A stretch of 61,403 bases of DNA, the filler included, from Actinobacteria bacterium UBA7524 (GTDB lineage Bacteria; Actinomycetota; Coriobacteriia; Anaerosomatales; UBA912): assembly GCA_002478275.1 (NCBI GenBank). It is 3 parts of 3 records of this genome, joined end to end, with 100 filler letters (N's around TTAATTAATTAA, not from the genome) between each part and the next. Parts side by side here need not be neighbours in the genome. Positions count along the whole stretch, not along the records: positions 1 to 18,050 come from DLMY01000052.1; 2 more parts are not named here. One strand, written 5' to 3'. A program made the position numbers and the translations under genes. This document shows positions 175 to 15,846 of the stretch, one piece after another; the stretch's first letter is position 1; every line of letters starts with the position of its first letter. The notes under the pieces are model-generated. The model worked only from the letters and a program-made list of their open reading frames with translations, was not told where the DNA came from and did no database searches.

Positions 175-513
175 CTACCCGATCGTCACGATGGCATCGG
201 CACCGCATGCGGCTGCCACAAGCCCTGGCATCGTGCCTTCGGCGCCAACAACCAGCTTGTCGGTCAGTTCGAAGTGCTTGAGGCAGGTACTGCACGCCGT
301 GATGGTCGCCCCAGCGTCGGCAAGCGAGCGCAGCTCAGGAAGTGCGTCGGAGCCCTCGCAGGCGAGAAGCACGCCCTCGTTGACGAGCATGATCGCTGCC
401 GGCGTCTGCTCCTCACGCGCGAGTGAGACCAGGAAGCTGCGCATGAGGACGGCGCCGAGCTCGGCCTCCGCCTTCCCGAATGTGTTGCTGGTTATGAGGA
501 TGCGCTTTGCCAT
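175..513 (-). CDS. DsrE-fold protein resembling the C-terminal domain of selenium metabolism protein YedF
   Basis: G-x4-ELGAVLMRSF, NEGVLLACEGS and ACSTCL motifs; lacks the N-terminal TusA/SirA domain. Confidence 0.7.
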   Translation of the reverse strand: MAKRILITSNTFGKAEAELGAVLMRSFLVSLAREEQTPAAIMLVNEGVLLACEGSDALPELRSLADAGATITACSTCLKHFELTDKLVVGAEGTMPGLVAAACGADAIVTIG

Positions 514-561
514 CGGATGCTCCTCTCAGACACAGGTCACTGCCCGCACATGATTGCGCCT

Positions 562-576
562 ATCGGCTATGCTTAT
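562..576. promoter_or_regulatory. Candidate operator (minus strand ATAAG-CATAG-CCGAT) in a divergent promoter region
   Basis: Shares the ATAAGCAT core with intergenic sites at 2876-2890 and 15884-15898. Confidence 0.4.
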
Positions 577-641
577 TATCCATATCATCCATGTCTATTC
601 TCGTCCATCTACCGAGGGTGCGAACCCATGGGAGGGCACGC

Positions 642-1793
642 GTGAGCGAGGAATCGGTTCGTGAACTGGTCGAGTGGTTCGGCGAGGCAACGGCGTGGGC
701 ACGCGTGGCCGTCAAAGAGGCGTCAGAGGCAGGAACGCCGATCATCGGCCTGTACTGCGGCTATATCCCCTCCGAGATCATCAGGGCCTCCGGCGCGCTC
801 GCCGTTGGGCTGTGCGGCTCAACGCCAGCTGCTGTTGCCGATGGCGAAGTCACACTGCCCCGCAACTTCTGCCCACTTATCAAGTCGAGCTACGGGCTCG
901 CCATCACCGATACGTGCCCGTACTTCCACTTCGCCGACGCGCTCATCGGTGAGACCACCTGCGACGGCAAGAAGAAGGCGTTCGAGCTGTTCGGCGAGAT
1001 GAAGCCGACCCATGTGATGCAGCTGCCGTACGACGCCGACACCGAGCGTGCGTACGAGCAGTGGCGCGCCGAGATCGATCGAGTCGTCGGGTTCATCGAG
1101 GGCGTCACCGGAACGACCATCACCGCAGAATCGCTCTCTCGCGAGATCCACGACGCCAACGAAGTCCGCGCGCTGCTGGCGGATGTCGCCTCCACATTCG
1201 AGGCGGAGCATCCCCTCCTGTCATGGGAGGAGATGCTGGTCGTCCAGAACGCCGGTGGCTTCCTCACCGACCGGTCGACGTACAAAGAGAAGCTGAGGGA
1301 ACTGGCCGAGGCGCTCAGGGCAACGCCCCTTGTCACGGAGGCCGGGAACGGGCGGCCACGGGTGTTGCTCACGGGGACGCCGATAGCTCCGACGACCAAC
1401 AAGGTCATGCGACTCATCGACGAGGCGGGGGGCCGAGTCGTGTGTCACGACGCCTGCAGCGGCGTGAAGATGTACGACAGACTGGTTGACGAGACCGGCG
1501 ACCCGCTCGAGTCGCTGACGCGCTACACCCTGGGTCTGCCGTGCGCCTGCATGAGCCCAAATCCTGGACGGATCGACCTGCTCGCCAAGTCGGTCGAGCG
1601 CTACCGCATCCAGGGAGTCGTGGAGAACGTGTGGCAGGCATGCCACACGTTCAACGTGGAGTCCGTGGTGGTCGGCCGAGCATGCGAGAACGACCTCAAG
1701 ATCCCGCACCTCAAGCTCGAGACCGACTACGCGGAGTCCGATCTCGACCAGCTCAGGGTTCGAATCGAGGCGTTCGTCGAGATGCTTCGGTAA
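642..1793 (+). CDS. Double-cubane cluster protein (2-hydroxyacyl-CoA dehydratase family)
   Basis: LPRNFCPLIKS, TCPY, GETTCDGKKK, CACM and RIEAFVEM motifs; GTG start after GGAGGG. Confidence 0.85.
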   Translation: MSEESVRELVEWFGEATAWARVAVKEASEAGTPIIGLYCGYIPSEIIRASGALAVGLCGSTPAAVADGEVTLPRNFCPLIKSSYGLAITDTCPYFHFADALIGETTCDGKKKAFELFGEMKPTHVMQLPYDADTERAYEQWRAEIDRVVGFIEGVTGTTITAESLSREIHDANEVRALLADVASTFEAEHPLLSWEEMLVVQNAGGFLTDRSTYKEKLRELAEALRATPLVTEAGNGRPRVLLTGTPIAPTTNKVMRLIDEAGGRVVCHDACSGVKMYDRLVDETGDPLESLTRYTLGLPCACMSPNPGRIDLLAKSVERYRIQGVVENVWQACHTFNVESVVVGRACENDLKIPHLKLETDYAESDLDQLRVRIEAFVEMLR

Positions 1794-2034
1794 GGGCTCG
1801 CCTCAAGCCATACGCGCCGATCGGAACGACAGGCACACCGTCAACACAGACGGCGGCCCCGTGTATCGAACCGGGGTAGCGAGTGCCGGCCAAGGGGTCT
1901 TCATCGAGGCGGTAGACGACGACCTCGATGATCGCGCGCCACTCGGCGCCGGCGCAGACCTCCCGTACGAGCTGCTCGCTTGCGCGGCAGTCAGGGCAGG
2001 TACTGAAGAACTCGATGAGTACTTTGTCTCTCAC
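1753..2034 (-). CDS. Thioredoxin-like protein, SaoT paralog
   Basis: IEFFSTCPDC resembles VEFINTCPHC of 13539-13802; 3' end overlaps the convergent gene. Confidence 0.6.
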   Translation of the reverse strand: MRDKVLIEFFSTCPDCRASEQLVREVCAGAEWRAIIEVVVYRLDEDPLAGTRYPGSIHGAAVCVDGVPVVPIGAYGLRRALTEASRRTPRFEP

Positions 2035-2047
2035 CGGGATGGGCGGG

Positions 2048-2071
2048 AGGGCCCGCCCGAAGGCGGGCCCT
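2048..2071 (-). terminator. Stable hairpin with C(UUCG)G tetraloop after saoD
   Basis: AGGGCCCGCC-TTCG-GGCGGGCCCT, 10-bp perfect stem, no U tail. Confidence 0.55.
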
Positions 2072-2083
2072 GCTCGGCGAATG

Positions 2084-2416
2084 CTAGAGGGTGATGACCT
2101 GGTCGGGGGCGGCGGGGGCGAGCGCTGCGTAGAGATCCGGGAAGCAGCCGATGCTCGCGCCGGGGATCAGCTGGTCTGCGATGTGGCGCTCGTACGCGCA
2201 CTGATCGCACGCCATCAGCAGCATGCCGGTCTTCTCCTGAAGCGCCTGGAGCTTGCGGCCCATCTCGGTACCGTTGAGCAGGAAGAACGTGTTGTCGACG
2301 AAGAAGAACATGCCGACAACCTCCACTCCATGACGGCCCTCCTCCATCTGAGGGATGATCATGGTATCGAGGATCTTCTGGCTGGTGGTCGTGGCGAACA
2401 CGTACGCGATCTTCAT
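2084..2416 (-). CDS. saoD: DsrE-related protein SaoD
   Basis: MKIAYVF...IIPQMEEGRHGVEVVGMFFFVDN, ACDQCA and GCFPDLY family signatures. Confidence 0.8.
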   Translation of the reverse strand: MKIAYVFATTTSQKILDTMIIPQMEEGRHGVEVVGMFFFVDNTFFLLNGTEMGRKLQALQEKTGMLLMACDQCAYERHIADQLIPGASIGCFPDLYAALAPAAPDQVITL

Positions 2417-2814
2417 CTTGTGGCCTCCTGTGACTCGTGCTGACGGGTTGAACCGCGGCGACTGGCCTGCGCCAGCGCCGCCCTCAGGACGGATACCGCG
2501 AGCTCGCAGCGATCCCTCCGGTGGGCCGGGACTTGTTCGAGATCGGAAGCGAGCATCTCGGGCGTGATGGCGAGGGCATCTCCGACCGCAAGACCTGTCG
2601 CCATTTCGGTCAGCCGGCTGGATGCGGCGACCATAGTCACGCAGGTGCTCGAGCGAAAGGCGACGGCGTCGATCGTGTCGCCCGAGACGCGCACGCTCAC
2701 ACGAACGACGACGTTGTCCTTCGTCTCCTCGGCCATCCCGTCACACGGCTCGAGATCGCCGACGTTGCGAGGCGAACGGAAATGGTCGATGAGCGTCGCG
2801 GAATACGGATGCAT
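2413..2814 (-). CDS. IscU/NifU N-terminal-like scaffold protein, atypical
   Basis: YSATLIDHFRSPRNVG, FRSSTC and RDRC motifs; the first conserved CGD motif is absent. Confidence 0.7.
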   Translation of the reverse strand: MHPYSATLIDHFRSPRNVGDLEPCDGMAEETKDNVVVRVSVRVSGDTIDAVAFRSSTCVTMVAASSRLTEMATGLAVGDALAITPEMLASDLEQVPAHRRDRCELAVSVLRAALAQASRRGSTRQHESQEATR

Positions 2815-2853
2815 GGTGCACGGGCCCCTCAGCTCGCGGTCCAGCACCATACT

Positions 2854-2890
2854 ATCGTATTGTCTGATGCTGGTCATCCAGGATGCTTAT
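2854..2890. promoter_or_regulatory. Two candidate 15-bp pseudo-palindromic operator sites
   Basis: Minus strand ATAAG-CATCC-TGGAT (2876-2890) and ATCAG-ACAAT-ACGAT (2854-2868), upstream of the iscU-like gene. Confidence 0.35.
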
Positions 2891-2910
2891 GGCTGAAAGT
2901 GATCTGGGCC

Positions 2911-3186
2911 TCAGCAGTCGCAGCGGGGCTCCTCACCACTGAGCCACTGCCTGATGATCGCGTGAGCACAGCCCACGCCGGGACTGAGCGATATCGCGCC
3001 CTGGGCGCAGTTCTTGGCGCACGCGCCGCATTCCATGCACGCATCGCGGTCAGCAATGCGGGCGCGCCGCTCCTCCATGGCGAAGACGGCGTGCGGGCAG
3101 ACCTGCGTGCAGAGAGCGCAACCGTTGCATTTCTCGACATCAAGCCTCAGCGTGACGACATCCTTGATGTAGCGCGGCGTGGACAT
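2911..3186 (-). CDS. hgcB: Mercury methylation ferredoxin HgcB
   Basis: Two CxxCxxCxxxC motifs including CMECGAC, GVGCA, C-terminal CDC; starts 11 bp after hgcA. Confidence 0.95.
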   Translation of the reverse strand: MSTPRYIKDVVTLRLDVEKCNGCALCTQVCPHAVFAMEERRARIADRDACMECGACAKNCAQGAISLSPGVGCAHAIIRQWLSGEEPRCDC

Positions 3187-3197
3187 CTCGTCCTCCC

Positions 3198-4292
3198 CTA
3201 GCCGGCGATCAGTGATACGACGATCAGGGCAATGCCCGCAGTCAGAGCAGCAAGCTGCAGGGGAATCGCACGACGCATCTCCCAGTCAACGCCCGAGGGA
3301 GACGTAAACGTGGATGAGCCGGTGAAGTTCATCGCGGTGTACGAGGCGATCGCAGTGCCGATGGCGACGAGCCCCCAGTCCCACAGCGGCACGTCACCTG
3401 CCGTCACGACCGCCACCGTGCCGCCCACGACCGCAACGCCAACGAGGGCGCCTTTGAGGGAGAACGCACGACCGGGCACCCACGGCAGCAGCAGCGGCGC
3501 GACTGCCGCGCCGGCAAGCACGCCGAGGATACAGGCGAGTACCGTTAGCCCGAACCTGCCGAGCATTTCAGGCGCAACCTGCGAGAGCACGATCGCAATC
3601 ACGGCTGCGAGACCGAGCAGGACGAGGGACGTCCGGCGCCAGAGAACCGACATCTCCACGCCTACGAGCTTCGCCCGATCGGCGAGCGGGAAACGGACGG
3701 CCCGCATCTCAGGCGTGGCCGTCATCCCTGCATCAAGGAAGATCGGCAGGTCACTCGCCCGCACCGGACCCCAGTTGACCGAGAACCCGCACCGCGAGCG
3801 CACCTCGTGGCCCGCCACGCCAGTTGCTCCGAGCTGCGGCAGCACCAGTCGCGTGTGGCCGACGATCTGGTCGAGGCGCACCTTGCGTACCATGCGGACC
3901 ACCTCGGCGGTGCCGAAGGTGCCCTTGCCCGCCGCACACCAGACGTTGACACCACGGGTATCGAGGACGAGTAACCACGCATCCCGACCGGCGAGTTCGC
4001 GACGTACCACGTCGAACGTGAGCTTGTAGTTGCAGGTGACGAGGACCGGTGAGGTGTCGTCTGGTGAGCCGACCGCATAGAGCGCGGGCCGCACACGATA
4101 GTCGCCACGCCTGATGCCAAGACGCACGCGAACGGCCCCGCGCTTGTCCGATGCGCCAAGTTGGGTGGAGATGCGCTCCACTGGCCCGGCGAGAGTGTCG
4201 ACAGTGCCCGTTACGAACAGTTGCGGGGAGTATGCGTACTCGGGAGGCGCGTCACAGCAGCACGATTGGGGAGGACCGCAACACTCACTCAC
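3198..4292 (-). CDS. hgcA: Mercury methylation corrinoid protein HgcA
   Basis: Cap-helix motif NVWCAAGKG, VTCNYKLTFD, PQLGATGV, GPVRASDLP, C-terminal TM helices, MNFTGSSTFTSPSGV; RBS GAGGAGG before GTG. Confidence 0.97.
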   Translation of the reverse strand: MSECCGPPQSCCCDAPPEYAYSPQLFVTGTVDTLAGPVERISTQLGASDKRGAVRVRLGIRRGDYRVRPALYAVGSPDDTSPVLVTCNYKLTFDVVRRELAGRDAWLLVLDTRGVNVWCAAGKGTFGTAEVVRMVRKVRLDQIVGHTRLVLPQLGATGVAGHEVRSRCGFSVNWGPVRASDLPIFLDAGMTATPEMRAVRFPLADRAKLVGVEMSVLWRRTSLVLLGLAAVIAIVLSQVAPEMLGRFGLTVLACILGVLAGAAVAPLLLPWVPGRAFSLKGALVGVAVVGGTVAVVTAGDVPLWDWGLVAIGTAIASYTAMNFTGSSTFTSPSGVDWEMRRAIPLQLAALTAGIALIVVSLIAG

Positions 4293-4345
4293 CGGACGAG
4301 TCCCTCCTCGTTGTGTGCCGCACCGCGCCAGGCGTGAGCGGCATT

Positions 4346-5554
4346 CTACGACAGCATCTCTACGAACGTGCGAACCCGCATGATCTGCTCTTCGGTGGGG
4401 CGCTCCTTGTGGATGGTGTTCTCAAGAGAGATGATCGGGATGCCAAGCCCCTTGAAGTAGTCGCGCTCGGTCTGCTGTACCACGCTTCCGTACGGGCAGC
4501 CAGTGATCGCCGAGGCGATGACCCCTTTGGCGCCCGTCGCCCTGCAGATCCTCTCAACATGGAACCGGCGATACGTGGCCGATGTCCCGGCGCCCTCGCC
4601 GAGCTCACCACGAGCCTGCGCATCCAGCACGTAGTGCGCAACGGCCTCCAGTGGCGGCATGTCCTCGGAGTACAGCTCGGTCCCGGCGATGACCCAACCC
4701 ACGATGGCTGCGTTGGACTCATCGATCACCCGCAGCGTGTCGGCGCTTCCCGCGCCTCCGCCCGCCAGCACCAGCGGGATGTACGTGCGCGTTGTCGGTA
4801 CGCGAGTCGCCTCCTCGAGTTCTGCGATGAGGAGGTCGAGCACCCGGCCGAACTCCGCCGGATCGCCGTACAGGTGGCTCGTACCCAGCAGCACGTGCAG
4901 CGTGGGCACGCTGCCGAGGACGAACGGGTCGCGCAACCTGAGGTCGAGGACTTGCCGCACCTTACGCGAGATCTCGTTCTTCCGTCGGATCTCCTCGCGC
5001 AGCCGGTCTTCATCGACCGGACTGCCGGTCAGCCAGATCGCGGCTCGCTGCAGCTCGCTCGCAAGGAAGCGCACGACCTCTGGGCGCTTCTCCTCCGCTG
5101 TGAACGCGGTGACGTTCTCAATGCAGAAGGTGTCGTAACCCTCCATCTTGACAAGTTCCATGACGTTGTTGATCGGCTCGCACGTCGCCCCGAAGTACAA
5201 CACGCGCCTGATCTGCGACTCCTTGTTGAGGTGCATGCGACCGATGATCGTCTTCACCATCGAGCAGTACTCGGGCGGAATCTGGAACATGTTCTCGCCG
5301 AGCGACTCGGCCGTGCGGCTATCCTCCCGCCACAAGCCCTCGATACCGACCGGGATCGTGTCGCAGGCGTAGAGCAACGGTGTGTCCCAAGAGTTGCCAC
5401 CCCATACCGCAGACGCACCCTCGGCCACCTGTCGCTCGATGCGCTCGAGCGAGTAGGACACCACGAGGGCCTCGAGCGCGACGCGGGCCTCCGAGACATC
5501 TCGCTGTTCCCCCACGGCGCGGCGATCAGCGGGCGATGACGAGTTCGCGGTCAT
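4346..5554 (-). CDS. 2-hydroxyacyl-CoA dehydratase family Fe-S subunit (reduced Cys set)
   Basis: PEYCSMVK, ATCEP, TGCPY and RVRTFVEML motifs. Confidence 0.75.
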   Translation of the reverse strand: MTANSSSPADRRAVGEQRDVSEARVALEALVVSYSLERIERQVAEGASAVWGGNSWDTPLLYACDTIPVGIEGLWREDSRTAESLGENMFQIPPEYCSMVKTIIGRMHLNKESQIRRVLYFGATCEPINNVMELVKMEGYDTFCIENVTAFTAEEKRPEVVRFLASELQRAAIWLTGSPVDEDRLREEIRRKNEISRKVRQVLDLRLRDPFVLGSVPTLHVLLGTSHLYGDPAEFGRVLDLLIAELEEATRVPTTRTYIPLVLAGGGAGSADTLRVIDESNAAIVGWVIAGTELYSEDMPPLEAVAHYVLDAQARGELGEGAGTSATYRRFHVERICRATGAKGVIASAITGCPYGSVVQQTERDYFKGLGIPIISLENTIHKERPTEEQIMRVRTFVEMLS

Positions 5555-7592
5555 GAGCATCACCTCTCCGGACCTCGAGTACTTCGACGAACGCTTCGAT
5601 CCTCGTCTTCAGCTGACCGTGATCGCTCTCGGAGTAGTCACTGGAGACGTCGAGCACCGGGATCTCAAGATTCTGGAAGTGATCGATGAATCCCTTCTTG
5701 GTGACTCCGTAGCACGAACAGAACTTCAGGTAGACGTACAGGACCCCGTCCACGTCGTACTCGCGCGCGAGTCGGCCGGAGAAGTCAACGCAGTCGTCGA
5801 GTGTCTTCATCCGGCCACAGGGCGCCTGGTCAAGATAGCCGTCGGCGAGCGCCTGGAAGACGTCACCCTCCTCCGAGATCGTGTGCGAGAACGGCCTTAG
5901 CCCCGCGCAGTGGTCCTCGACCACGACCTGCAACCCGATCTCCTCCTCGAGGAGCGTGAGGAGCCGCCGGTCCCCATCCGCCGCGATGCTGCCGGCGACC
6001 ATCACGCGCAGCCGAGTGTTCTCGCTGGAATCGGGAACGTCGCTCAGCTGCCGAAGCACATCCTCATAGACGGAGACCAGTTCCTCGGCGGGGACGTAGT
6101 AGTAGGCGCGCGCCAGGTCGACGAACTCCGTGCCGGACAGCGGCGGGTGCTCCCGCTTGCGCAGCTCGGAAATGGCCTTCAGTAATCGGCGAAGCCGGTT
6201 GTAGAGGCGGATCTGCTCCCTGATCGCTTCGTCAGACACGTCGTGACCGGTGAGCGTGACGAGGTCGTCTCGCAGGGCGAGCATCTCGCCCCGGAAGAAC
6301 GCGCGCGATGCCTCCGAGTTCCTGAGCTTCGGCAGGTTGAAGAGCTTCACCGGCACGAACTGCTCGGCTACCTCACTGGCCCGCTTCATGCTCGCGCATG
6401 TGTGAAAGCTGTAGAGCCTGTCGATCGACGCATGGACCGGATCGCCGGCGGCGAACCCGCCGACGAAGCACTTGCTGAAGTCGCAGAACACGCTCTGCGT
6501 GTGCCGCTCACCCGCTGCCACCATCTCAGCCCCCCCGGCCTTAAAGAGCCTAAGGTGCTTTACGCCGGCCGCGTTGAGCAGCTCCACCGGGGTGTATGCG
6601 CACACGTAGCCGACCTGGGAATCGTCGCTCTTGTTCTCGATGAACGCCTCCCGCTGCAGTTCGATGAGCTCGGCCACCGACGACAGGTCGACGCCCCGGA
6701 ACTGGTGGATCGTGTCCTCGGCCCCTCGGGAACGCGCCGCATGCTGCGTGGCATAGACGGCCGCCCCGAGCGCGCCCGCGTAGATCATGTCGAACGGAGT
6801 CTCGATGAAGCGCTCTCCGATGAGTTCCTCCAGAACCTGGCGCATCCCCGGGTTGTTCGAGACACCGCCGGTGAACAGCAAGTCGGGCTCTGACTCGACG
6901 CGTCCCAGCAGGTTCCGCACGCGGCGGGCAGCCGAGTGATGAATCCCCGCGGCGATGTTCGCCACAGCCGCAGCATCCTTCTGGCGGGCGCCCTTGGCCC
7001 GGAGCGAGATCATCTCCGACTCGGCAAAGACCACGCACTGGCTGCTGATCTGAGCGGGGTCGGTGGCTCGGAGCGATGCCGCGCCCAGCTCGTCAAGGTC
7101 GAGGCCGAGCTGCACTGCGGCCTTCTCGAGGAACTGCCCCGTTCCGGCGGCGCATTTGTCGTTCATCACGAAATCGACGACCTTGCCGGTGGCCGTGTCC
7201 ACCCGTATCGCCTTCGAGTCCTGCCCGCCTATGTCGATGATCGTCCTGGTCGACGGGTGAAGCGCGTGCGCACCCATGGCATGGCAGGAGATCTCGGTCA
7301 CGACTTCGAAGGGGATGTCCGCGAACGAGAGTGAGATCCGCCCATAGCCGGTGCTCACGATGTAGCCGATGTCCTCGCGGCCCAGGCCCGCGAGCCTGAC
7401 GAGCCTGCCGAGAAGCTCGTCAGCGGTCTCCTGCATGTACAGGCCGGTCGGAATGAGGGTCGTGTGAATCGTGTCGCCCGTCAGCAGAACGCCCTTGGAC
7501 GCACGCGATCCGATGTCCAGCCCCACGACCGGCTGGCGCCAGGCAAACCGCCAGGGCGCACCCCCCGTGAGCTCCTGTAGTGAGTAGTCCAC
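5526..7592 (-). CDS. Fusion of an ATP-dependent activator (BcrAD/BadFG ASKHA domain) and a dehydratase/double-cubane-like domain
   Basis: GLDIGS, TGYGR, DIGGQDSK, MNDKCAAGTG and SQCVVFAESE, then CAYTPVEL, EDHCAG and KTRIEAFVE. Confidence 0.88.
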   Translation of the reverse strand: MDYSLQELTGGAPWRFAWRQPVVGLDIGSRASKGVLLTGDTIHTTLIPTGLYMQETADELLGRLVRLAGLGREDIGYIVSTGYGRISLSFADIPFEVVTEISCHAMGAHALHPSTRTIIDIGGQDSKAIRVDTATGKVVDFVMNDKCAAGTGQFLEKAAVQLGLDLDELGAASLRATDPAQISSQCVVFAESEMISLRAKGARQKDAAAVANIAAGIHHSAARRVRNLLGRVESEPDLLFTGGVSNNPGMRQVLEELIGERFIETPFDMIYAGALGAAVYATQHAARSRGAEDTIHQFRGVDLSSVAELIELQREAFIENKSDDSQVGYVCAYTPVELLNAAGVKHLRLFKAGGAEMVAAGERHTQSVFCDFSKCFVGGFAAGDPVHASIDRLYSFHTCASMKRASEVAEQFVPVKLFNLPKLRNSEASRAFFRGEMLALRDDLVTLTGHDVSDEAIREQIRLYNRLRRLLKAISELRKREHPPLSGTEFVDLARAYYYVPAEELVSVYEDVLRQLSDVPDSSENTRLRVMVAGSIAADGDRRLLTLLEEEIGLQVVVEDHCAGLRPFSHTISEEGDVFQALADGYLDQAPCGRMKTLDDCVDFSGRLAREYDVDGVLYVYLKFCSCYGVTKKGFIDHFQNLEIPVLDVSSDYSESDHGQLKTRIEAFVEVLEVRRGDAHDRELVIAR

Positions 7593-7642: not shown

Positions 7643-8287
7643 CTACTCGAGGCCGAAGAGCCACCGAGCCACCACGAGCGCCTCGGTGACCTCGAGAATG
7701 AACAGGTCGGATGTGTCCGTGCCCGACTCGGCAACCCAATCCTCGTAGTGCTTCTTCGTACAGAAGAAGTTCATGACGTTTCAACAACTCCCCGCCCAGT
7801 TGTCATCCTTGTTGAGATCCGCGTGCACGGCGTGCGCCGTTGCCGGCACGGCGGAGGTGACTGCCCCGTCTGTGACCTCGACTCTGATCGGCTCCCCGCA
7901 TCTCGAGCACTTCGAGGTCAGGACGATATCCTGCCCGAGTGTGAACGCGCTCCCGAGCCCGTCGATCGCGCACATCGGATGGAACGAGCGACCATCAGCC
8001 AGGGTCACGGTGTGTGTCGTGGGCAGTCCGGAGACCGGATACGCGAAGTTCACTTCGCCGCCGGCTCCACGAACGAGGAAGTGCTCTTCGTCCAGCCCAC
8101 GTTCGGCAGCAGCAAAGCGCTCGTCATCGAGAGCCACCACGCCGCGCATGTCGGAGGGCGTCACCGGACCTCCGGCGTTGATGATGCCCTCCATCACGGC
8201 GTGCCGCAGGACCCGCTCATCCTCCGTGAGCCGGGAACAGATGCTCGCGATGCGCAAGCGCTCCTCGGGATACTCCTTGAACCTCAT
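7643..8287 (-). CDS. saoL: MerB-like organometallic lyase SaoL, selenoprotein (Sec at UGA 7781-7783)
   Basis: AYPVSG, MCAIDGLG, SKCSRCGEPI; the frame continues past UGA as WAGSC-U-NVMNFFCTKKHYEDW...LFGLE to TAG; ATG overlaps the saoA stop. Confidence 0.88.
7751..7769 (-). promoter_or_regulatory. Bacterial SECIS-like hairpin of saoL
   Basis: CTTCTTC-TGTAC-GAAGAAG at +12 to +30 after the UGA, with G in the second loop position. Confidence 0.7.
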
Positions 8288-9165
8288 GCGCGCTCTCCCA
8301 TCGCAGCCAGTTCCTGAGGCGCGCAACCGGTGTACTCTGCGGCACACTGTGCAGCACTCGCGAGGGCGACCGTTGCGCGGGAATCCCCTCGAGCCTCTTC
8401 GGCGGGCCCTGTGCCGAGGGCGGTCTTGAGCAGATCGATCAGGCGGTCCTCGTAGTGGTGATACGCATCGCCTTTGCGTTGACGCGGACGCGGGAGGTCG
8501 ATGCGTATGTCTTCGAGGATCCGACCGCGGTCGGAGGACATCACGATCACGCGATCCGACAGGTAGATGGCCTCTTCAACGTCGTGGGTCACCATCAGGA
8601 CCGTAGTGCGGTCCTTGAGCCAGAGCGCCTCCATCTCCTCCTGCATGATCATGCGCATCTGGAAATCGACCGCACCGAACGGCTCGTCCATGAGCAGGAC
8701 CTGGGGACGAGCGGCAAGGGCCCGGATGACAGCCGTGCGCTGCTTCATCCCTCCGGACAGCTGGTGCGGATAGAGGTTCTCTTTGCCCTGAAGCTGCGCC
8801 AATGCCATGAGCTGCCCCAGGCGCTCCTCGCGCTCGGCCTTCGGCACACCCAGGCGCTTCATTGGGTACAGGATGTTGTCCTTGACCTTCATCCAGGGGA
8901 ACAGCGCATAGTCCTGGAAGATGAAGCCTCTATCGGGGCCCGGCTTGGTGACCAGAGCGTCGTTCAGGGTGATCGTGCCTCCGGTCGCGGGGAGGAACCC
9001 CGCTATGATATTGAGCAGTGTGGTCTTCCCGCAGCCTGAGGGACCCAGCAGCGTGACGAACTCGCCGGTGCCGATGGTGAAGCCGACGTTCTCCAACACG
9101 ACGTGCTTGGTCTTCCCGTTGTCGAACACCCTGCTGATGTTCTTCATCGCAAGTCGCATGGTCAT
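8284..9165 (-). CDS. saoA: ABC transporter ATP-binding subunit SaoA (TauB/SsuB-like)
   Basis: GPSGCGKT, LSGGMKQR, LLMDEPF; position in the locus. Confidence 0.85.
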   Translation of the reverse strand: MTMRLAMKNISRVFDNGKTKHVVLENVGFTIGTGEFVTLLGPSGCGKTTLLNIIAGFLPATGGTITLNDALVTKPGPDRGFIFQDYALFPWMKVKDNILYPMKRLGVPKAEREERLGQLMALAQLQGKENLYPHQLSGGMKQRTAVIRALAARPQVLLMDEPFGAVDFQMRMIMQEEMEALWLKDRTTVLMVTHDVEEAIYLSDRVIVMSSDRGRILEDIRIDLPRPRQRKGDAYHHYEDRLIDLLKTALGTGPAEEARGDSRATVALASAAQCAAEYTGCAPQELAAMGERA

Positions 9166-9935
9166 GCCACCTTCCACCGCGCCAGAACGCGGCTCGTCAG
9201 AAGCAGCATTCTGTCGATCGTGAAACCCACCAGCGCGCCCATGATCATGAGACCCATCAGACGGTCGGTCTCCATGCGCGTCTGCGCGTCTACCATGAGG
9301 AAGCCGAATCCGGCACTTGTCGCGACGAACTCGGCGCAGATGACTGACATCCAGCCAGCACCGAGGGCGACGCGCATCCCCGTCAGGATGCCGGGGAACG
9401 AGCCAGGGACGATCACATGCGCGAAGATGCTCCAGGGCTTGGCGCCGAGACTGCGTGCGGCATTGTAGTAGTCCTTCGAGATCCCCTCGACCCCGGCGGT
9501 CGTGTTCAGGATCACCGCGAACACCCCAACGAATGCGATAAGGAAGACCGTTGGCCCGTCACCGAGGCCGAACCACACTATCGTCAGCGGCACCCATGCC
9601 ATCATCGGGATCTGCCGTAAGGAGTCTATGAGCGGGTCGATGTAGCGACGCGCCGTCATCGAGTAGCCCATGAGGTAGCCGATGGGAACGCCGATGACGA
9701 GCGCGTAGCCGAACCCGGTCATGACGCGGCGAATCGTGAGCAGCAGGTTCTCGTGTATCCAGGGGTCGATGGCGTCTTTGCCGAACGCACTGATCGCCAT
9801 CCACGGCGTCGGCATGATGAATGTGTTGCCGTAGAGCATCGCCGCCGCCTGCCACACCCCTATGAGCGCGAGCACGCTGACGATCCATGTGTACCGCCGC
9901 CGGTCGGTGATGCTAGCCAGCATGTCGCGGCTCAC
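9162..9935 (-). CDS. saoP: ABC transporter permease SaoP (Cys form)
   Basis: TauC-like TM protein, NAARSLGA loop, WMSVICAEF with Cys at the family Sec position. Confidence 0.85.
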   Translation of the reverse strand: MSRDMLASITDRRRYTWIVSVLALIGVWQAAAMLYGNTFIMPTPWMAISAFGKDAIDPWIHENLLLTIRRVMTGFGYALVIGVPIGYLMGYSMTARRYIDPLIDSLRQIPMMAWVPLTIVWFGLGDGPTVFLIAFVGVFAVILNTTAGVEGISKDYYNAARSLGAKPWSIFAHVIVPGSFPGILTGMRVALGAGWMSVICAEFVATSAGFGFLMVDAQTRMETDRLMGLMIMGALVGFTIDRMLLLTSRVLARWKVA

Positions 9936-10744
9936 CCATCCACCGCGAGTGTTGTAGAGAGAAACCTTATCTGCTGCCTCTTCCACTTCTCCGCCTCCTC
10001 TCCCGTGAGTCGATCTCCTTTGTACGCGCCCACCGCGTCCGCCAGAGTCGCAGGATCGTTCAGTTCCGTCACTGACTGCTCAAACGCGCCGATGAAGCCC
10101 GGGTATGCGTCGCTGTCCCGGAACTCCGTGCTCACCACCAGCACGTACGTCACTCTGTCCCCCCCGTCGCCAAGCGTCGACGGAAGCCACTCGCCCTCCA
10201 GATGGCGGGCCTTGAGTGCATCGATGACGGCCCCGCCCACCGTCCCCCGTTCGTACGCGTACGGAATCGCGCTCGTCACCATCGGCGTCGCTGCCGCTGC
10301 GGCGCCGAATCGATCGGCGATCACATCGACCTGGTAGTCACGGTTCTGCGTGAATGCAACCCTCTGTGGTGTTGAGTCCCCTCTAACCAGCACTACGTCC
10401 GAGTTCGCCAGGCACGGTCCCACGATCACGAACCTGGCGTCCTTCTCCACCAAGCGCCGAGCAGCATCCGGACACATGATTGCAGCGTCCAGCGCCTCCG
10501 AACTCAGCGCCCACTCCGCGCGAGAGGTGCAGCAGTCCTTGATCGCGAGCGCACTGAGATCCTCGACCACGTGCTCGCCGTCAACGGTCGCAGTGCGCAG
10601 CATGTGATCGACGATCAGGCCCGACGTGTCATCCGGCGAACCGATCCTCAGCCCGCCGGGGACGCTCTCGCCAGGAGAGGCGATGATCAGGGCGATCACC
10701 ACAAGGACAGCCGCTATGGCACCTGCGGTAATCACCCGTCTCAT
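9932..10744 (-). CDS. saoB: ABC transporter substrate-binding protein SaoB (CC form)
   Basis: IGSPDDTSGL, IKDCCTSRAEWAL and IMCPDAA motifs; N-terminal membrane anchor. Confidence 0.82.
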   Translation of the reverse strand: MRRVITAGAIAAVLVVIALIIASPGESVPGGLRIGSPDDTSGLIVDHMLRTATVDGEHVVEDLSALAIKDCCTSRAEWALSSEALDAAIMCPDAARRLVEKDARFVIVGPCLANSDVVLVRGDSTPQRVAFTQNRDYQVDVIADRFGAAAAATPMVTSAIPYAYERGTVGGAVIDALKARHLEGEWLPSTLGDGGDRVTYVLVVSTEFRDSDAYPGFIGAFEQSVTELNDPATLADAVGAYKGDRLTGEEAEKWKRQQIRFLSTTLAVDG

Positions 10745-10753: not shown

Positions 10754-11902
10754 CTACCCCTTGTCGACTTCTGCCGCTTTGAGCTTCCAGTCCTCGTATG
10801 GCATGCCGATTGGGAACACCGGGTCCACTTCCTCCTTGATGAAGGTCGCGAAGTCATCCACGGGTGCGGCTTCGAGCAACCCGGTCTGCAGCAGTGCGTC
10901 GAGATCGGGCGCAACGTCGATCGACTTCGCCTCAAGATCCCAGGCGACCTCGTCCTCGAAGCGCTGCCGATCGATCTCCCAGACCATCGTGCGGCCCTCG
11001 GCCACGGTCTTGCGCCAGATCGTCATCAGCGCGACTTCTTCGGGCACGCTGTAGGCCGTCGCGAACAGGCGCGCGGCCTCCATGGGCTGGGTGTAGATCA
11101 TCTCGATCGCGTCAACGTGAGCGGCGATCACACGCGTTGCCAGCTCGGGATGGTTGTCGTAGAAGTCCTGGCTCATGGAGAGCTGGCAGCACGCCGCCCA
11201 GTCGCCGGTCGTCGGGATCTTGTCGGCCATCGCAAGGACATGGCCGGTTCCCTCATAGACAGCCATCGAGCCCCACGGATCACACGTCGTGTAGGCCTTG
11301 AGTTGCCCGGTCTTCATCGCGAGATACTCGTCCTTGTCGGACATGTCGAACGACTCGTAGTTGGAGCCAGCAACCGGAAGCCCCAGCTCCTTTGCCATGA
11401 CGAGCCACGACGAGCTCGACTCCGGATTGGTGCCGAAGCCGACCTTCTGGCCGACCAGCTGCTCGGCATCGGTGATGTCGTTCGAAGCGATCAGGTAGTA
11501 CGAACCGCCGAGGTGGTTGTCGGCCGCAACAACGATGGGAGCGCCCTTCGAGAACGCCTTCATCAGACCCTCAACGCCGATGTAACCCGCATCCATCTGA
11601 CCGGCGGTCATGGCCTGCGGCACGTTGCCGTTGCCCACAACCTCGGTCGTCAGTCCGTACTTCTCGTAGAGCCCCGCCGCCAGGGCGATCGGCGCCGCGG
11701 TCATGTGATCGCAGTTGTAGTAGCCGATCCTGACCACGTAGTCCTTGTCGGCCTCTGGAATGGCCGGTAGCTCAACGGTCTCTTCCTCAACCGTCGGCTC
11801 TTCGACAGCCGACTCCTCTTCCTCCTTCGGAGTGCATCCGCCGACGGCGGCGGCGGCGAGCATGCCCGCGAGCATGAGCGCCACCATCTTCTTGTACTTC
11901 AT
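10754..11902 (-). CDS. saoX: ABC transporter substrate-binding lipoprotein SaoX
   Basis: Lipobox VGGC, IGYYNCDHM, NHLGGSYYL, TCDPWGS and ACC motifs. Confidence 0.85.
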   Translation of the reverse strand: MKYKKMVALMLAGMLAAAAVGGCTPKEEEESAVEEPTVEEETVELPAIPEADKDYVVRIGYYNCDHMTAAPIALAAGLYEKYGLTTEVVGNGNVPQAMTAGQMDAGYIGVEGLMKAFSKGAPIVVAADNHLGGSYYLIASNDITDAEQLVGQKVGFGTNPESSSSWLVMAKELGLPVAGSNYESFDMSDKDEYLAMKTGQLKAYTTCDPWGSMAVYEGTGHVLAMADKIPTTGDWAACCQLSMSQDFYDNHPELATRVIAAHVDAIEMIYTQPMEAARLFATAYSVPEEVALMTIWRKTVAEGRTMVWEIDRQRFEDEVAWDLEAKSIDVAPDLDALLQTGLLEAAPVDDFATFIKEEVDPVFPIGMPYEDWKLKAAEVDKG

Positions 11903-11991
11903 CGTTCCTCCTAGTTGATTCGAGCCCTTACACGGTCCGCCTATCCACCGGGTCGCCCCCCTGGGGCACCCCCCAACGCAGAACCACTCAC

Positions 11992-12447
11992 TCAGCAGCA
12001 GTCCTCCATCCCCTCACCGAACAAATCGCTCAACCGGCCGTCCTCGATCCGGTAGATGGCATAACCGATGTTCGCTCCCTTGGAGCCTTGAACGGTGAAC
12101 TCCGTTGGAGCCGCCTCGTCGATGTCGCGGAGTGTGATCGACTGGTTCTCAGCCGGCGCGGGAAGATCGTTGGTGAGGCTTGGAACGTCGCCGCCAAGCA
12201 CCACGAGCAACCCATTGCGTCCGTCGCCTTTCGCGAAGATCACCACGAGGTCGCCCACTCCATCGCCGCTCACGTCTCCCGCGGCACTCGCGATGACCTC
12301 GGCGCCGGGGCGCAGCGTCCCGAACGCCGCGAGGAGTTGCTCGTCGGACACCTCGGTAGTTGGCGATGGGCCGACTCCCGGACCTGGCGTGCATCCGGCG
12401 AGGGCGAATACGCAGATTGCCAGGCCAACAAGCGGCCACCGCTTCAT
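11992..12447 (-). CDS. saoC: Cys-Cys-COOH lipoprotein SaoC
   Basis: Lipobox LAGC, PAPAENQ, ends DLFGEGMEDCC-stop; ATG overlaps the saoE stop. Confidence 0.85.
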   Translation of the reverse strand: MKRWPLVGLAICVFALAGCTPGPGVGPSPTTEVSDEQLLAAFGTLRPGAEVIASAAGDVSGDGVGDLVVIFAKGDGRNGLLVVLGGDVPSLTNDLPAPAENQSITLRDIDEAAPTEFTVQGSKGANIGYAIYRIEDGRLSDLFGEGMEDCC

Positions 12448-13538
12448 CACGCCACCACCGTTGCGCGCCCGCGAACGAGTGTCGTCGCCCAGGTCCACCA
12501 CGCGTACGCCCCCATCGCGATGACGGCAGCCGAGCACGCCCACTCCAGCGCCACGGGCGACCATCCCGAGAGCGCGGTCGCGAAGCCGACTGCGGCTTCG
12601 GAGCCAGAGGTGTCGAACGTGGGTACGAAGCCGGGCCCAAGCAGCGCATTCGCGATTGCGCCAACCGCGAAGGAGGCGAGTACGAGGAGGCCTGAGTAGA
12701 TGATCGCCGGACGACGGCCCATGAGCTTCCAGATACTCAGAAGCTCGGGTGCGTTTGTGGCGGCACCCGTCATGAGAAAGGTCAGGGCCAGTCCCGGTGC
12801 CGCGCCGCTCGCCACGAGGGCAGCGGTGAACGGTATGTGGCCGACTGCGCAGACGTACATGATGGCGCCGAGGATGGCGCCTGCCCCCAGGGACAGCGCC
12901 CCAGGGTCGCCCAGGTATGCCTGTATGAGGCTCTGGGGCACCAGCGCGATGATTGCTCCCGCCAGCAGCATCCCCACCACCACGTACCTGCTCACCATGA
13001 GTCCGAGTTCGGCGAACCCCCAGCGCTGACCTGCAGCAAGACGGTCCTTCAGAGGTGCCATGTGCGAAATCGCCGGTACCGCCGCCGGTGCGCCCTCCTC
13101 AAGTCCGGGCGCGCGCAGGCTTGAGCCGCCGAGGCGGTTTCCTACGAACCCGATGATCATGGGCACCACGAAGCCCGCTATCAGGTAGATGGTCGCGATC
13201 CTCCACCCGAGCAGCGAGTACGCGAGGATGACCGCCGCGGGATTTATGATGGGCGTCGCGGCCATGAATGCCAGCGTCGGCCCCAGGTACGCACCTGAGT
13301 AGTAGAGCGAAAGCCCGATCGGGATGACGCCGCAGCTGCAGATCGGCAGGAGCATGCCTGAGACAGTCGCCTTCGCCAGTGTCGACAAGCGGCTGTTCCC
13401 AAGCGTGCGTTGCAGCCTGTCCGGACTGACGAGGGCGTGGATCAGCCCGGCCAGAGCGAAACTCAGTATCAGCCACACGGACGCCCCGTTGAGGATGTCG
13501 AGAGCTGCGGTGAGTGTCTTGGTGACGGCGCCGGTCAT
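12447..13538 (-). CDS. saoE: Efflux permease SaoE (DUF318/ArsP-like)
   Basis: LLPICSCGVIP, ATPIINP and MYVCAVGHIP motifs; multiple TM helices. Confidence 0.85.
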   Translation of the reverse strand: MTGAVTKTLTAALDILNGASVWLILSFALAGLIHALVSPDRLQRTLGNSRLSTLAKATVSGMLLPICSCGVIPIGLSLYYSGAYLGPTLAFMAATPIINPAAVILAYSLLGWRIATIYLIAGFVVPMIIGFVGNRLGGSSLRAPGLEEGAPAAVPAISHMAPLKDRLAAGQRWGFAELGLMVSRYVVVGMLLAGAIIALVPQSLIQAYLGDPGALSLGAGAILGAIMYVCAVGHIPFTAALVASGAAPGLALTFLMTGAATNAPELLSIWKLMGRRPAIIYSGLLVLASFAVGAIANALLGPGFVPTFDTSGSEAAVGFATALSGWSPVALEWACSAAVIAMGAYAWWTWATTLVRGRATVVA

Positions 13539-13802
13539 CTACGCGCCCGCCTCTGCCACAGCCTCGGCGACGACTCGCTCGATGAGCGAGCGGCTGGGCT
13601 CCTCGTATCGATCGGTCCCGTTGATGATTAGCGTTCCGCGTGAGACCACGCCGTAGCGCCTGATGTAGTCGACGTCTCTCCCTGCGACGTGAATGTGCAC
13701 GTCTACCCTGTCGGGATAGGTGGCCGCCACTTCGCGAACGTCGCGCTCAAAGCCCGCGCAGTGCGGGCACGTGTTTATGAACTCAACGAGTGCTCTGGGC
13801 AT
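13539..13802 (-). CDS. saoT: Thioredoxin-like protein SaoT (Cys form)
   Basis: EFINTCPHC, AGRDVDYIRRYG and GTLIING; abuts saoE. Confidence 0.8.
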   Translation of the reverse strand: MPRALVEFINTCPHCAGFERDVREVAATYPDRVDVHIHVAGRDVDYIRRYGVVSRGTLIINGTDRYEEPSRSLIERVVAEAVAEAGA

Positions 13803-13814
13803 TGTGCGAACCCC

Positions 13815-14561
13815 CTATTCAACCGCGGCGCTCAGTGCCGCACCGTAAGCGCCCACGATCTCGGCCTCATCCGGCACGCGCACCTCACCGGCAAACCCCT
13901 CGGTGATGAGCGCCACCATGGCCGGGTTCTTGGCCACGCCGCCCGCGAACACAAGCGGGCCCTGCGCGTTCACCCGCTTGAGCGAGCCGAGAGTGCGCTT
14001 GGCTATCGAGTCGTGCAGGCCGCGGGCAATGCGCGCCCGATCCTCGCCGCGATGCACCAGCCCGGTGACCTCGCTCTCTGCGAACACGGTGCACATGCTG
14101 GAGATCGCGATGCCCGCCTCTGCCTCCAGTGCGCACTCAGCCATCTCCTCGAGCGAGTAGCCGAGGGCACGGGCCATCACTTCAAGGAACTTCCCTGTGC
14201 CTGCGGCGCACTTATCGTTCATCTCGAAATCGGTCACGCGTCCGCCGTGGCCGAGCGTGATCACCTTGGTGTCCTGGCCGCCGATGTCGAGCACGGAGGC
14301 GGCCTCCGGAAAGAGCACCGCGGCGCCCGTGCCATACGCGGTGATCTCGGTGACCGCGGTGCCGCCGAAGCGCTCCTTGGCGGCATGTCTCCCGTACCCG
14401 GTCGACACGATCACGTCGTGCGCGCAGCGGTCGACGAAGGCGGCCGCGGCTGACCCGGGGTCGAACCCCGAGTCAGCGACCGCCCAATCGACGATCCGGC
14501 TATCGTCGAGCCACACGGCGTCCACGCTTCTGGAACCGATATCAAGCCCGAGTACCCGCAT
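13815..14561 (-). CDS. ATP-dependent activator/reductase of the double-cubane protein (acyl-CoA dehydratase activase family)
   Basis: GLDIGSR, TGYGR, DIGGQDTK, MNDKCAAGTG and SMCTVFAESE motifs. Confidence 0.9.
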   Translation of the reverse strand: MRVLGLDIGSRSVDAVWLDDSRIVDWAVADSGFDPGSAAAAFVDRCAHDVIVSTGYGRHAAKERFGGTAVTEITAYGTGAAVLFPEAASVLDIGGQDTKVITLGHGGRVTDFEMNDKCAAGTGKFLEVMARALGYSLEEMAECALEAEAGIAISSMCTVFAESEVTGLVHRGEDRARIARGLHDSIAKRTLGSLKRVNAQGPLVFAGGVAKNPAMVALITEGFAGEVRVPDEAEIVGAYGAALSAAVE

Positions 14562-14565
14562 CCGC

Positions 14566-15846
14566 CTAGAGCATCTCGAGGAACGCTTCGACACGCGTGG
14601 CGAGCTGACCCACGTCTTCCATCGAGTAGTCGGTCGTGACCTTCAGGACCGGCAGCCCTGCTTCGCGGACTGCGCTCTCCACACCATTGCTCTCCATCTC
14701 GTACAGACCGCAGAACTGCAGCGAATAGTCGATCACGCCGTCTGCGCCGTACTCCTTGGCCATGCGAACGACATCGTCGATGCGGCCTTTGTTGGGCGTG
14801 AAGCATGCGCAATTGATGTCGAGGTACTTCTCGGCGATGTCATCGATCATCTCATCGAGCGTGGCCGCGTTCTCGTCCACAAGGTCCTGGTAGTAGCGGC
14901 TACCGGTGCACATCTCCTCGGCCACCACCACGGCGCCGGCCTTCTCGATGATGTCGTGGAGCTTCCAGTTCGGGAGCGCCATCGGTGTTCCGGTCACGAG
15001 CACGCGCTTGGCGCCCTTGTGTGCCACACCCTCGCCCGCAGCGACGCGCTGGTCGAGCTCGTCAGCGAGCGCGTTCATCATCTGGGTGAAACGCGGTACG
15101 TCATCGTAGAAGGCCACCTGCGTTGCGAGCAGGCGGTCCTTGCCGGAGATCGGCGCCGGGTCGGCTTTGCACGCCGCGGCGATGCGCTGTAGCGCGCGGC
15201 GCTTGTCGTTCACTTCCTTGATCGACGCGCGTAGGCTCTCGGCGGTGATGGTGTTGCCGGTGATCTCCTCGGCCTTCTTCACCAGCTCTCGGATCTCGCC
15301 CTTCCACATCTCCAGGTCCTGCGGACGCTTCATCTGCGGAAGCTCCATGACCCACGTGTTGTGGATCTCGCCGAGGAGCTCGTAGGCCTTCTTCTTGCCG
15401 TCGCACGTGGTCTCGCCGATGACGAGGTCCGCCGACTCGATGTATGGACACACCTTCGCAAGTTTGAAGCCCATGAAGCTCTTGATGAGCGCGCAGGTGT
15501 TGCGCGGCATGATCTGCTCGACCTGGTCGTAGGCGAACTCCGCGCCGGCGCACAGGCCCACGCACCAGCCACCCGCCGCGCGGATGATCTCCTCGGGCAC
15601 GTAGAGACAGAACGTGCCGAAGACCTTGCCGCCGGCCTTGCGGAAGTCGTCGAGCTCCTTGATGCGAAGACCGTGGACCTCGGAGAGCACGAAGTTGAGG
15701 TAGTCCATGCCCTTCGGGCGGTTCTCCTGCGTGAGGTAGGCATCGCCGAACAGCTGGCCCACCGCGCCGAGCAGCGCGTCGTGCGAAGGCAGGTCGAGGC
15801 CGAGCTCGGCCCACATCGGATGATAGTCGACAGACTGATCGCTCAT
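14566..15846 (-). CDS. Double-cubane-cluster-containing anaerobic reductase
   Basis: GTFCLYVPEE, PRNTCALIKS, CPY, GETTCDGKKK, CACFTPN and QFC motifs. Confidence 0.9.
   Translation of the reverse strand: MSDQSVDYHPMWAELGLDLPSHDALLGAVGQLFGDAYLTQENRPKGMDYLNFVLSEVHGLRIKELDDFRKAGGKVFGTFCLYVPEEIIRAAGGWCVGLCAGAEFAYDQVEQIMPRNTCALIKSFMGFKLAKVCPYIESADLVIGETTCDGKKKAYELLGEIHNTWVMELPQMKRPQDLEMWKGEIRELVKKAEEITGNTITAESLRASIKEVNDKRRALQRIAAACKADPAPISGKDRLLATQVAFYDDVPRFTQMMNALADELDQRVAAGEGVAHKGAKRVLVTGTPMALPNWKLHDIIEKAGAVVVAEEMCTGSRYYQDLVDENAATLDEMIDDIAEKYLDINCACFTPNKGRIDDVVRMAKEYGADGVIDYSLQFCGLYEMESNGVESAVREAGLPVLKVTTDYSMEDVGQLATRVEAFLEML

Follow-up and report, generated by a model that had tools for sequence, protein, structure and literature searches.

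The present study reveals that a canonical hgcAB gene pair, the genes of the corrinoid protein HgcA and the ferredoxin HgcB, is physically embedded in a complete SAO locus with double-cubane reductases in the genome bin of Actinobacteria bacterium UBA7524 (GCA_002478275.1). The window, that is, the whole stretch of 61,403 nucleotides analysed here, is made of contigs C41, C42 and C43 joined by runs of N (for example, 18051-18150 and 34187-34286), and therefore no physical linkage of the finding extends past base 18050. Bases 1-18050 are one entire contig (C41) with zero N, and the source bin is 83% complete, 1.81 Mb in size and divided into 60 contigs. From 15846 down to 1753, the minus strand of this contig holds 17 co-directional genes, with intergenic distances ranging, on open reading frame (ORF) coordinates, from small overlaps to 89 nt. 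Their order is a double-cubane-cluster protein gene (DCCP1), an activase gene, saoT, saoE, saoC, saoX, saoB, saoP, saoA, saoL, two genes with an HGD-D domain, hgcA, hgcB, an iscU-like gene, saoD and a second thioredoxin-like gene.

Families were assigned with NCBIfam models and their curated cut-offs (scores are given below as bits/cut-off), plus Pfam. All nine Sao families, HgcA, HgcB, two double-cubane reductases and the activase score over the NCBIfam cut-offs. The nine Sao proteins (SaoT, E, C, X, B, P, A, L and D) each exceed the equivalog cut-off, and their genes lie on one strand between 2084 and 13802. A 4-nt overlap joins the stop of the iscU-like gene to the start of saoD; thus, a core SAO gene stands downstream of hgcAB. 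An earlier sequence-only reading of this DNA had described a gap-free, co-oriented run in this order and a complete SAO locus with double-cubane reductases, and had suggested family models for HgcA, HgcB and the Sao proteins as a check. The zero-N contig, the spacing of the 17 genes and the scores of the nine Sao families and NF040772 bear out each of these points. The gene list stands too, except for the end of saoL, where a UGA is read through, and for two supposed dehydratase genes, which we assign to an HGD-D-type reductase with a fused activase.

Until now, hgcAB and SAO were linked only by common Cys/Sec motifs (Sec, selenocysteine). Haft and Gwadz (bioRxiv 10.1101/2022.07.06.499078) proposed, from motifs alone, related organometallic chemistry for SAO and HgcAB, with no adjacency mentioned in the available part of that preprint. 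The neighbours named in papers on hgcAB neighbourhoods (PMC7438021 among them) are, in the parts available, ArsR, ars genes and a toxin-antitoxin gene; no SAO gene is listed there. No report of an hgcAB-SAO linkage was found in the literature, although a mention in PMC9879109 or in Haft and Tolstoy 2025 (PMC12013261) would have escaped us. The linkage is real and, it appears, both rare and new. The native role of hgcAB besides methylmercury is stated as unknown in the available part of a preprint on strain ND132, and the SAO substrate is likewise unknown according to the SAO preprint (10.1101/2022.07.06.499078, in part). A natural operon that joins both systems would be a testable lead to the purpose of hgcAB. 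Genes for a MerB-like selenoenzyme, an importer, an ArsP-type exporter and four activase-dependent iron-sulfur proteins are part of the putative operon as well. Furthermore, with this locus, an uncultured actinobacterial population becomes a candidate methylator whose regulation would be unusual; its metagenomic habitats comprise groundwater, sludge, soil, biofilm, hydrocarbon and marine samples. The main limit is that the arrangement represents one evolutionary event so far.

Reality of the linkage and site of the insertion

The same gene order was found in three assembled records. L032, taken as the same record as contig C106 of a second bin (G186:C106), matches the window at 99.6% nucleotide identity over 13.7 kb and at 99.9% over 15.6 kb, and the metagenome contig L079 matches it at 99.9% over 15.5 kb. 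Bases 1700-9200 are present at least partly in 19 run rows from 13 studies (five of the rows are marked as possible sources of this DNA), and 13 rows hold half or more of the sampled words; none of the runs listed is an RNA run. Four runs from four other studies (X6, X7, X10 and X11) cover every depth bin of the contig. Contigs from X6 (50-5140 and 7132-10542) and X7 (2049-3717 and 3745-8490), which come from different studies, together bridge every insertion junction: they run from saoD through iscU, hgcB and hgcA to the HGD-D gene, from hgcA through the HGD-D pair and saoL to saoA, and from the HGD-D fusion through saoL, saoA and saoP to saoB. The contigs listed for X10 and X11 measure only 424-1,566 bases. 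The sequence-only reading had named a chimeric join, or an arrangement unique to one genome, as what would speak against it. No chimeric join was seen, the junctions being bridged in independent assemblies at 99.6-99.9% identity, and the arrangement recurs in G186:C106 and in metagenome contigs.

It is therefore extremely unlikely that the linkage is an artefact of chimeric assembly or binning and does not exist in one DNA molecule. The incomplete, 60-contig bin would leave room for such an error, as would the near-identity of the contig to one in a bin of another family, since the host may be misassigned for one bin or both. Against it stand the three records and the bridging contigs, the collinearity of both sides of the insertion with the SAO loci of relatives, and a tetranucleotide make-up that is typical for the bin (rank 52 of 95 pieces). 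A binning error would change the host but not the linkage. A circular 18-kb element was also considered for the contig, whose ends (1-602 and 17459-18050) show several-fold higher depth and odd joints in the mapped runs. This was rejected because L079 and G186:C106 continue past both contig ends, and the odd joints and depth are hence taken as the effect of short repeats, such as the 26-nt direct repeat at 3-28 and 89-114.

SaoE scored over its cut-off in 9 of 401 genomes sampled from the class, and eight loci besides that of the window were compared. In G080, G282, G029, G028 and G092, the double-cubane and activase genes are followed by saoT-E-C-X-B-P-A-L and then by a convergent double-cubane gene; G092 also has an IscU-like gene and saoD between saoL and the convergent gene. 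Since saoL is followed, in six relatives, directly by the DCCP gene or, in G092, by the iscU-like gene and saoD, the insertion point is fixed. The window consists of the relatives' backbone plus four genes, the HGD-D pair and hgcAB, between saoL and the IscU-like gene. Among the eight loci, only that of G186 has this insertion; in G164, the contig ends in saoL, and the hgcA of this genome, on a different contig, has no Sao genes beside it. We therefore regard the arrangement as an insertion specific to one lineage, found as one locus type in two bins and in metagenome contigs.

At 0.645-0.663, the inserted genes hardly differ in GC content from the rest. Terminator-like sites were absent from the minus strand of the contig, against six on the plus strand. 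A scan for sigma-70-like promoters gave 0 sites in 18 kb and is uninformative for this organism, and an Rfam search of the contig gave no match at E up to 0.1. From spacing and strand only, we infer that a single transcript most likely covers all 17 genes.

The inserted genes and SaoL

The coordinates below are on the minus strand unless stated otherwise. HgcA (3198..4292; NF040863 405/275) is a corrinoid membrane protein with an N-terminal ECCGPP...CCC stretch, the cap-helix motif NVWCAAGK at residues 116-123 and a hydrophobic C-terminal domain, four or more hydrophobic segments lying between residues 216 and 364. For the cap helix we used the pattern N(V/I)WC(A/S)(A/G)GK, which we take to be the general one. 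The protein begins VSECCGPPQSCCC..., the Cys form of a P-C-(U/C)-G-P-type motif; an N-terminal extension with this type of motif in HgcA has been described by Haft and Gwadz (10.1101/2022.07.06.499078, in the part available). HgcB (2911..3186; NF040864 126/99) is a two-[4Fe-4S] ferredoxin with both CX2CX2CX3C motifs, an extra cysteine in GVGC and a C-terminal C-D-C. Canonical HgcB ends in CC, whereas the C-D-C end of the embedded protein is common to the ordinary HgcB of its close relatives. As a separate observation, several clostridial and Syntrophomonas hgcB genes (L046, L048, L051, L052 and L040) have a TGA at the conserved GVGC cysteine, giving GVG-U, which fits the published selenoprotein HgcB.

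The embedded HgcA looks canonical, as judged from its sequence: all motifs are intact, without sign of decay. The pair resembles the hgcAB of Pseudodesulfovibrio mercurii ND132 and others in its equivalog scores, NVWCAAGK motif, membrane domain, N-terminal Cys cluster, ferredoxin motifs and extra HgcB cysteine. It differs in its setting. Canonical hgcAB usually has an ArsR-like regulator in front, whereas the embedded pair has no ArsR and stands in the middle of the run, 53 nt behind an HGD-D gene. In the tree, the embedded HgcA is nested in the HgcA clade of the order (SH-aLRT 98-99) as sister to G005 at 63% identity, and its branch length is ordinary (0.34 vs a median of 0.35-0.39). Its identity to the HgcAs of f19, the family assigned to G186, is only 42-45%.

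The bin also has an ordinary hgcAB pair (G000:C47:436-2532; L002), with an ArsR-family regulator gene directly upstream and a PAS sensor gene downstream. The HgcA of this pair is 58% identical to the embedded one and groups with that of a genome of the same family (G001). The usual hgcAB of the order sits elsewhere, by an ArsR-type regulator or an ArsP-type permease. Among 29 hgcA-positive genomes sampled in the order, five have an ArsP_1 permease gene (238-266 bits) downstream of hgcA and hgcB, in the same orientation and at a distance of a few hundred bases (L085-L089: G028:C11, G024:C6, G008:C281, G018:C12 and G040:C2). ArsP_1 is the Pfam family of SaoE, and these cases are an independent hint tying hgcAB to SaoE-type transporters.

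The other two inserted genes encode a fusion of an N-terminal activase with a C-terminal HGD-D iron-sulfur subunit (5526..7592; TIGR00241 233/125, NF040772 219/350; Pfam BcrAD_BadFG and HGD-D), which opens the module, and its partner, a second HGD-D-family subunit (4346..5563; Pfam HGD-D 110 bits, NF040772 42/350). The fusion retains 6 of the 7 double-cubane cysteines and the second protein 4 of 7. With scores of 219 and 42 against 350 bits and incomplete cysteines, the two were rejected as true double-cubane proteins; on sequence grounds, the pair is assigned to a heterodimeric HGD-D-type reductase with a fused activase. Jeoung and Dobbek reportedly described, in 2018, a double-cubane cluster protein with an ATP-dependent reductase. 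The two backbone genes of the locus resemble that system, as they reach NF040772 with the seven-cysteine pattern and have an activase adjacent, whereas the inserted pair differs from it in being heterodimer-like with one activase-fused subunit.

The fusion is absent from the SAO loci of six relatives. Its partner occurs in 2 of 146 genomes of the order (E up to 1e-40) and is widespread outside the order at 52-73% identity. A pre-existing four-gene module was rejected, because the nearest HgcA relatives (G005, G029, G001, G010 and G012) have no HGD-D or Sao genes within 10 kb, and no donor with all four inserted genes together was found. Since the HGD-D pair is foreign to the order and HgcA comes from within it, the module is a mosaic, and no fewer than two gene sets entered one slot of an intact operon and were kept there. 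In a record without hgcA (L081, 1257-16325), homologues of the pair, 78% and 68% identical, stand beside genes for an NMT1-type binding protein, ABC (ATP-binding cassette) permeases and ATPases, a PNPOx-like gene and two NosL-like genes. The ABC importer of L081 is of the NMT1 type, the same family as SaoX/P/A, and this setting may be the usual context of the HGD-D pair.

SaoL, a MerB-like lyase, is encoded directly before the insertion (7646..8347, likely start ATG 8287; NF040728 158/140). An in-frame TGA at 7781-7783 follows a Cys codon, and 44 further codons lead to a TAG at 7646-7648; the read-through product reads ...GSC-U-NVMNFFCTKKHYEDW... The Cys-TGA and the conserved tail are present in all six relatives whose sequence extends that far. 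A stop at 7781 was rejected, since the UGA is followed by conserved coding in relatives. It is this conservation, and not a SECIS (selenocysteine insertion sequence) fold, that supports the Sec reading. The SECIS candidate is a 7-bp hairpin 14 nt past the UGA, and an 81-nt fold there is no better than shuffles (z 0.70). The U aligns with the catalytic Cys of the C-terminal pair in solved MerB2/MerB. SaoL as a true MerB was rejected, the MerB models giving 37/200 and 33/193, but the MerB fold is kept. Compared with a mer operon, the locus likewise has a MerB-fold lyase with the Cys...Asp and C-terminal Cys-pair positions as well as dedicated transport proteins; it differs in that SaoL is far under the MerB cut-offs, in that MerA, MerR, MerT and MerP are missing, and in that a methylating enzyme is present. 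We know of no mer operon with a methylating enzyme.

Only SaoL uses Sec at the locus; in the remaining Sao proteins, Cys takes the place of the Sec found in some species. The Cys-Sec pair with UGA read-through corresponds to the SaoL design in the available part of Haft and Gwadz (10.1101/2022.07.06.499078). As for the Sec machinery, the bin has an N-terminal SelD fragment with an in-frame TGA at a contig end (G000:C37:55908-56099) and a split SelB-like match under the cut-off (G000:C9:71215-72256); tRNA-Sec was not among the 27 tRNAs of this 83% complete bin.

Possible function of the composite locus

We give roughly an even chance to the reading that an uncultured anaerobic actinobacterium carries here an SAO operon variant of composite make-up, spread by horizontal exchange, whose 17 genes form one unit and handle, through cysteine/selenocysteine pairs, a single soft metal or metalloid. 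SaoC, SaoX, SaoB, SaoP and SaoA would capture the element and bring it in, and SaoT, SaoD and the IscU-like protein would hand on thiolate or selenolate complexes. HgcB together with HgcA would then move a methyl group from the corrinoid to the element. The methylated product could be exported by the ArsP-type permease SaoE or re-cleaved by the MerB-like selenoenzyme SaoL. The activase-dependent iron-sulfur reductases may give very low-potential electrons to the imported compound, or may keep the corrinoid and the ferredoxin reduced.

Functional coupling of hgcAB and SAO is in itself a reasonable hypothesis, with the chances about equal for and against. It is plausible because the predicted parts carry paired Cys/Sec sites and cover import, relay, methyl transfer, lysis and efflux, and because ordinary hgcAB adjoins an ArsP_1 permease in the five genomes mentioned above. 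Besides, arsenic induces an operon of ArsP and the thioredoxin-like ArsE together with hgcAB in ND132, according to the available part of the preprint, which lends the coupling further plausibility. A more far-reaching proposal would make HgcAB natively the carbon-metal bond-forming arm of a thiol/selenol-relay cycle, with the SAO importer, SaoL and the ArsP-type exporter as the other arms and the whole cycle in one operon. Methylmercury would then be a product or by-product of an uptake-alkylation-dealkylation-efflux pathway powered by ATP-driven iron-sulfur reductases. We regard this as improbable.

Several observations weigh against one functional unit. The six other SAO loci that could be judged all lack hgcAB (the contig of G270 is too short to judge). 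Within the flanks available, neither Sao nor HGD-D genes stand beside any other hgcA in 22 loci of the genome collection, some on contigs of only 4-8 kb, or in 8 further hgcA loci of the order (0 of 30 in total), and SaoE was found in none of five hgcA-positive genomes of other phyla. In a sample of Clostridia, SaoE occurred in 1 of 399 genomes scored (2 more were unscored), a yield too low to test the linkage. There is one locus type only; a single event can be chance, and the finding was drawn from a very large scan. As the normal hgcAB of the order sits elsewhere, the embedded copy was acquired secondarily and may not be informative on hgcAB generally. The HGD-D pair, being common without hgcAB, has its own function, which may not involve HgcAB. 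Furthermore, two bins of different families have the locus at 99.9% identity although the rest of their DNA agrees at only 73-78% (G000 vs G186), and genes of mobile and defence types flank it: an AbiEi antitoxin, a Beta_protein with an ImmA/IrrE-like (HTH/Peptidase_M78) regulator and, in G186, an rve-type transposase (window 17073-17882; L079:16886-19258; L077:6425-7369). Such flanks fit a variable island where passenger genes can accumulate.

The near-identity of the locus in two families also makes the host uncertain. Window bases 561-18050 match G186:C106, and the two versions diverge near base 561, where their YedF-like proteins are only 73% identical. Either a recent transfer or a binning error in one bin might be the reason; the tetranucleotide make-up does not single out the contig, and composition does not decide between the two.

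The reductase pair and hgcAB could accordingly be passengers, inserted by chance into the SAO operon of a mobile, variable island, which tolerates them and whose promoter they may use, but having no substrate in common with the SAO proteins. This is somewhat unlikely. The restriction to one lineage and locus type, the near-identity across families, the flanking AbiEi, ImmA/IrrE-like and transposase genes and the second, ordinary arsR-hgcAB pair of the bin would all suit such an insertion, and hgcAB is described as patchy in distribution, prone to transfer and variable in neighbourhood (PMC7438021, in the part available). However, two gene sets of differing origin entered one slot with no gene broken, the spacing stayed tight with saoD and the iscU-like gene remaining downstream, and HgcA is free of decay. 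Moreover, the locus is kept nearly letter for letter across many habitats, and hgcAB is repeatedly tied to the SaoE permease family elsewhere in the order.

A different assignment of substrate would make selenium the centre: the locus would traffic selenium, such as selenide or methyl-selenium species, HgcAB would move methyl groups onto or off Se, and mercury methylation would be at most a side reaction. The neighbours of the sulfur/selenium-relay type (the DsrE-like SaoD and the YedF C-terminal-like protein) and the need of SaoL itself for selenocysteine are in keeping with this, and the double-cubane family correlates with SelD (Haft and Gwadz, 10.1101/2022.07.06.499078, in part). Selenium stays a candidate element because, in the available part of PMC10418091, the type I MGC corrinoid methyltransferase system, which adjoins Sao and double-cubane genes in some genomes, is tied to methyl-selenium; one of its enzymes moves a methyl group from methylcobalamin to selenide. 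These clusters resemble the present locus in corrinoid-dependent methyl transfer beside Sao and/or double-cubane genes. They differ from it in having soluble MtaA-like methyltransferases and a separate corrinoid protein acting on methyl-selenium or methyl-sulfur, where the present locus has membrane-bound HgcA and HgcB (PMC10418091). On the other hand, HgcA and HgcB are canonical at the equivalog level, with the cap-helix cysteine used for methyl transfer to mercury; SaoL is MerB-like, and known members of the SaoE family export metals or organoarsenicals. A selenium-specific enzyme (SelD or Sec lyase) is also missing within the locus. We consider the selenium-centred explanation quite unlikely.

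Backbone genes of the locus

DCCP1, the first gene of the run (14566..15846; NF040772 493/350; Pfam HGD-D), encodes a double-cubane-cluster reductase that has all seven cluster cysteine positions in common with the other double-cubane protein (DCCP0) and is 75-93% identical to the same-place gene in the SAO loci of six relatives. It is followed by an ATP-dependent activase of the HgdC/BcrAD type (13815..14594, likely start ATG 14561; TIGR00241 207/125; Pfam BcrAD_BadFG). SaoT (13539..13802; NF040730 115/65) is thioredoxin-like with a CPHC motif and no Sec, and SaoE (12447..13538; NF040736 462/325; Pfam ArsP_1) is an efflux permease with a CSC motif. SaoC (11992..12447; NF040734 140/80) is lipoprotein-like and ends ...EDCC; its ORF is open up to 12564, with ATG 12447 as the likely start and a model match that begins at residue 52 of the long ORF.

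The importer comprises SaoX, an NMT1/SsuA-type substrate-binding lipoprotein with a CC motif (10754..11902; NF040735 477/300; Pfam NMT1_2), SaoB, a second substrate-binding protein (9932..10744; NF040727 269/140), the ABC permease SaoP (9162..9986; NF040733 373/295) and the ABC ATPase SaoA (8284..9177; NF040729 413/360). SaoB contains ...KDCCTS..., with CC at the position of CU in other species. Downstream of hgcAB, the IscU-like gene (2413..2877; Pfam NifU_N 67.5 bits) encodes a three-cysteine protein under all NCBIfam IscU/NifU/SufU equivalog cut-offs (best 70/188); a 52% identical gene lies between saoL and saoD in G092. The DsrE-like SaoD, the ninth core SAO protein (2084..2416; NF040732 180/169), is 93% identical to SaoD of G092. 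The run ends with a second SaoT-like, thioredoxin-fold protein with CPDC, which is under the cut-off (1753..2034; NF040730 25/65).

Taken with the SAO system described in the available part of Haft and Gwadz (10.1101/2022.07.06.499078), the locus agrees in the nine families, in the Cys-Sec pair of SaoL, in the CC/CSC/CxxC motifs of SaoB, SaoX, SaoC, SaoE and SaoT, and in the double-cubane and activase genes alongside; the order T-E-C-X-B-P-A-L is that of C. difficile. The locus differs in the four extra genes and the IscU-like gene between saoL and saoD, in the use of Sec by SaoL only, and in its mobile and defence-type surroundings, where that preprint saw no signs of mobility in the contexts viewed.

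Convergent with the run, on the plus strand, lies DCCP0, a second double-cubane reductase with 7/7 cysteines and an uncertain start (507..1793; NF040772 430/350). A genome with the SAO system is expected to encode a double-cubane protein, often within 5 kb, and both genes flank the present locus; by tblastn, no NF040772-type double-cubane gene was found in the bin beyond these two. The protein encoded at 175..513 on the minus strand is DsrE-like and resembles the C-terminal domain of YedF (TIGR03527 103/110, model positions 87-194 only). A full-length YedF was rejected, as the score is under the cut-off and no plausible N-terminal domain lies upstream even with TGA read as Sec. In the SAO locus of G029, an FtrB-like gene, for a ferredoxin-thioredoxin-reductase catalytic subunit, stands between the activase gene and saoT (L070:10792-11427), and an FtrB-like gene also stands beside the G186 version of the locus (L077:2936-3559).

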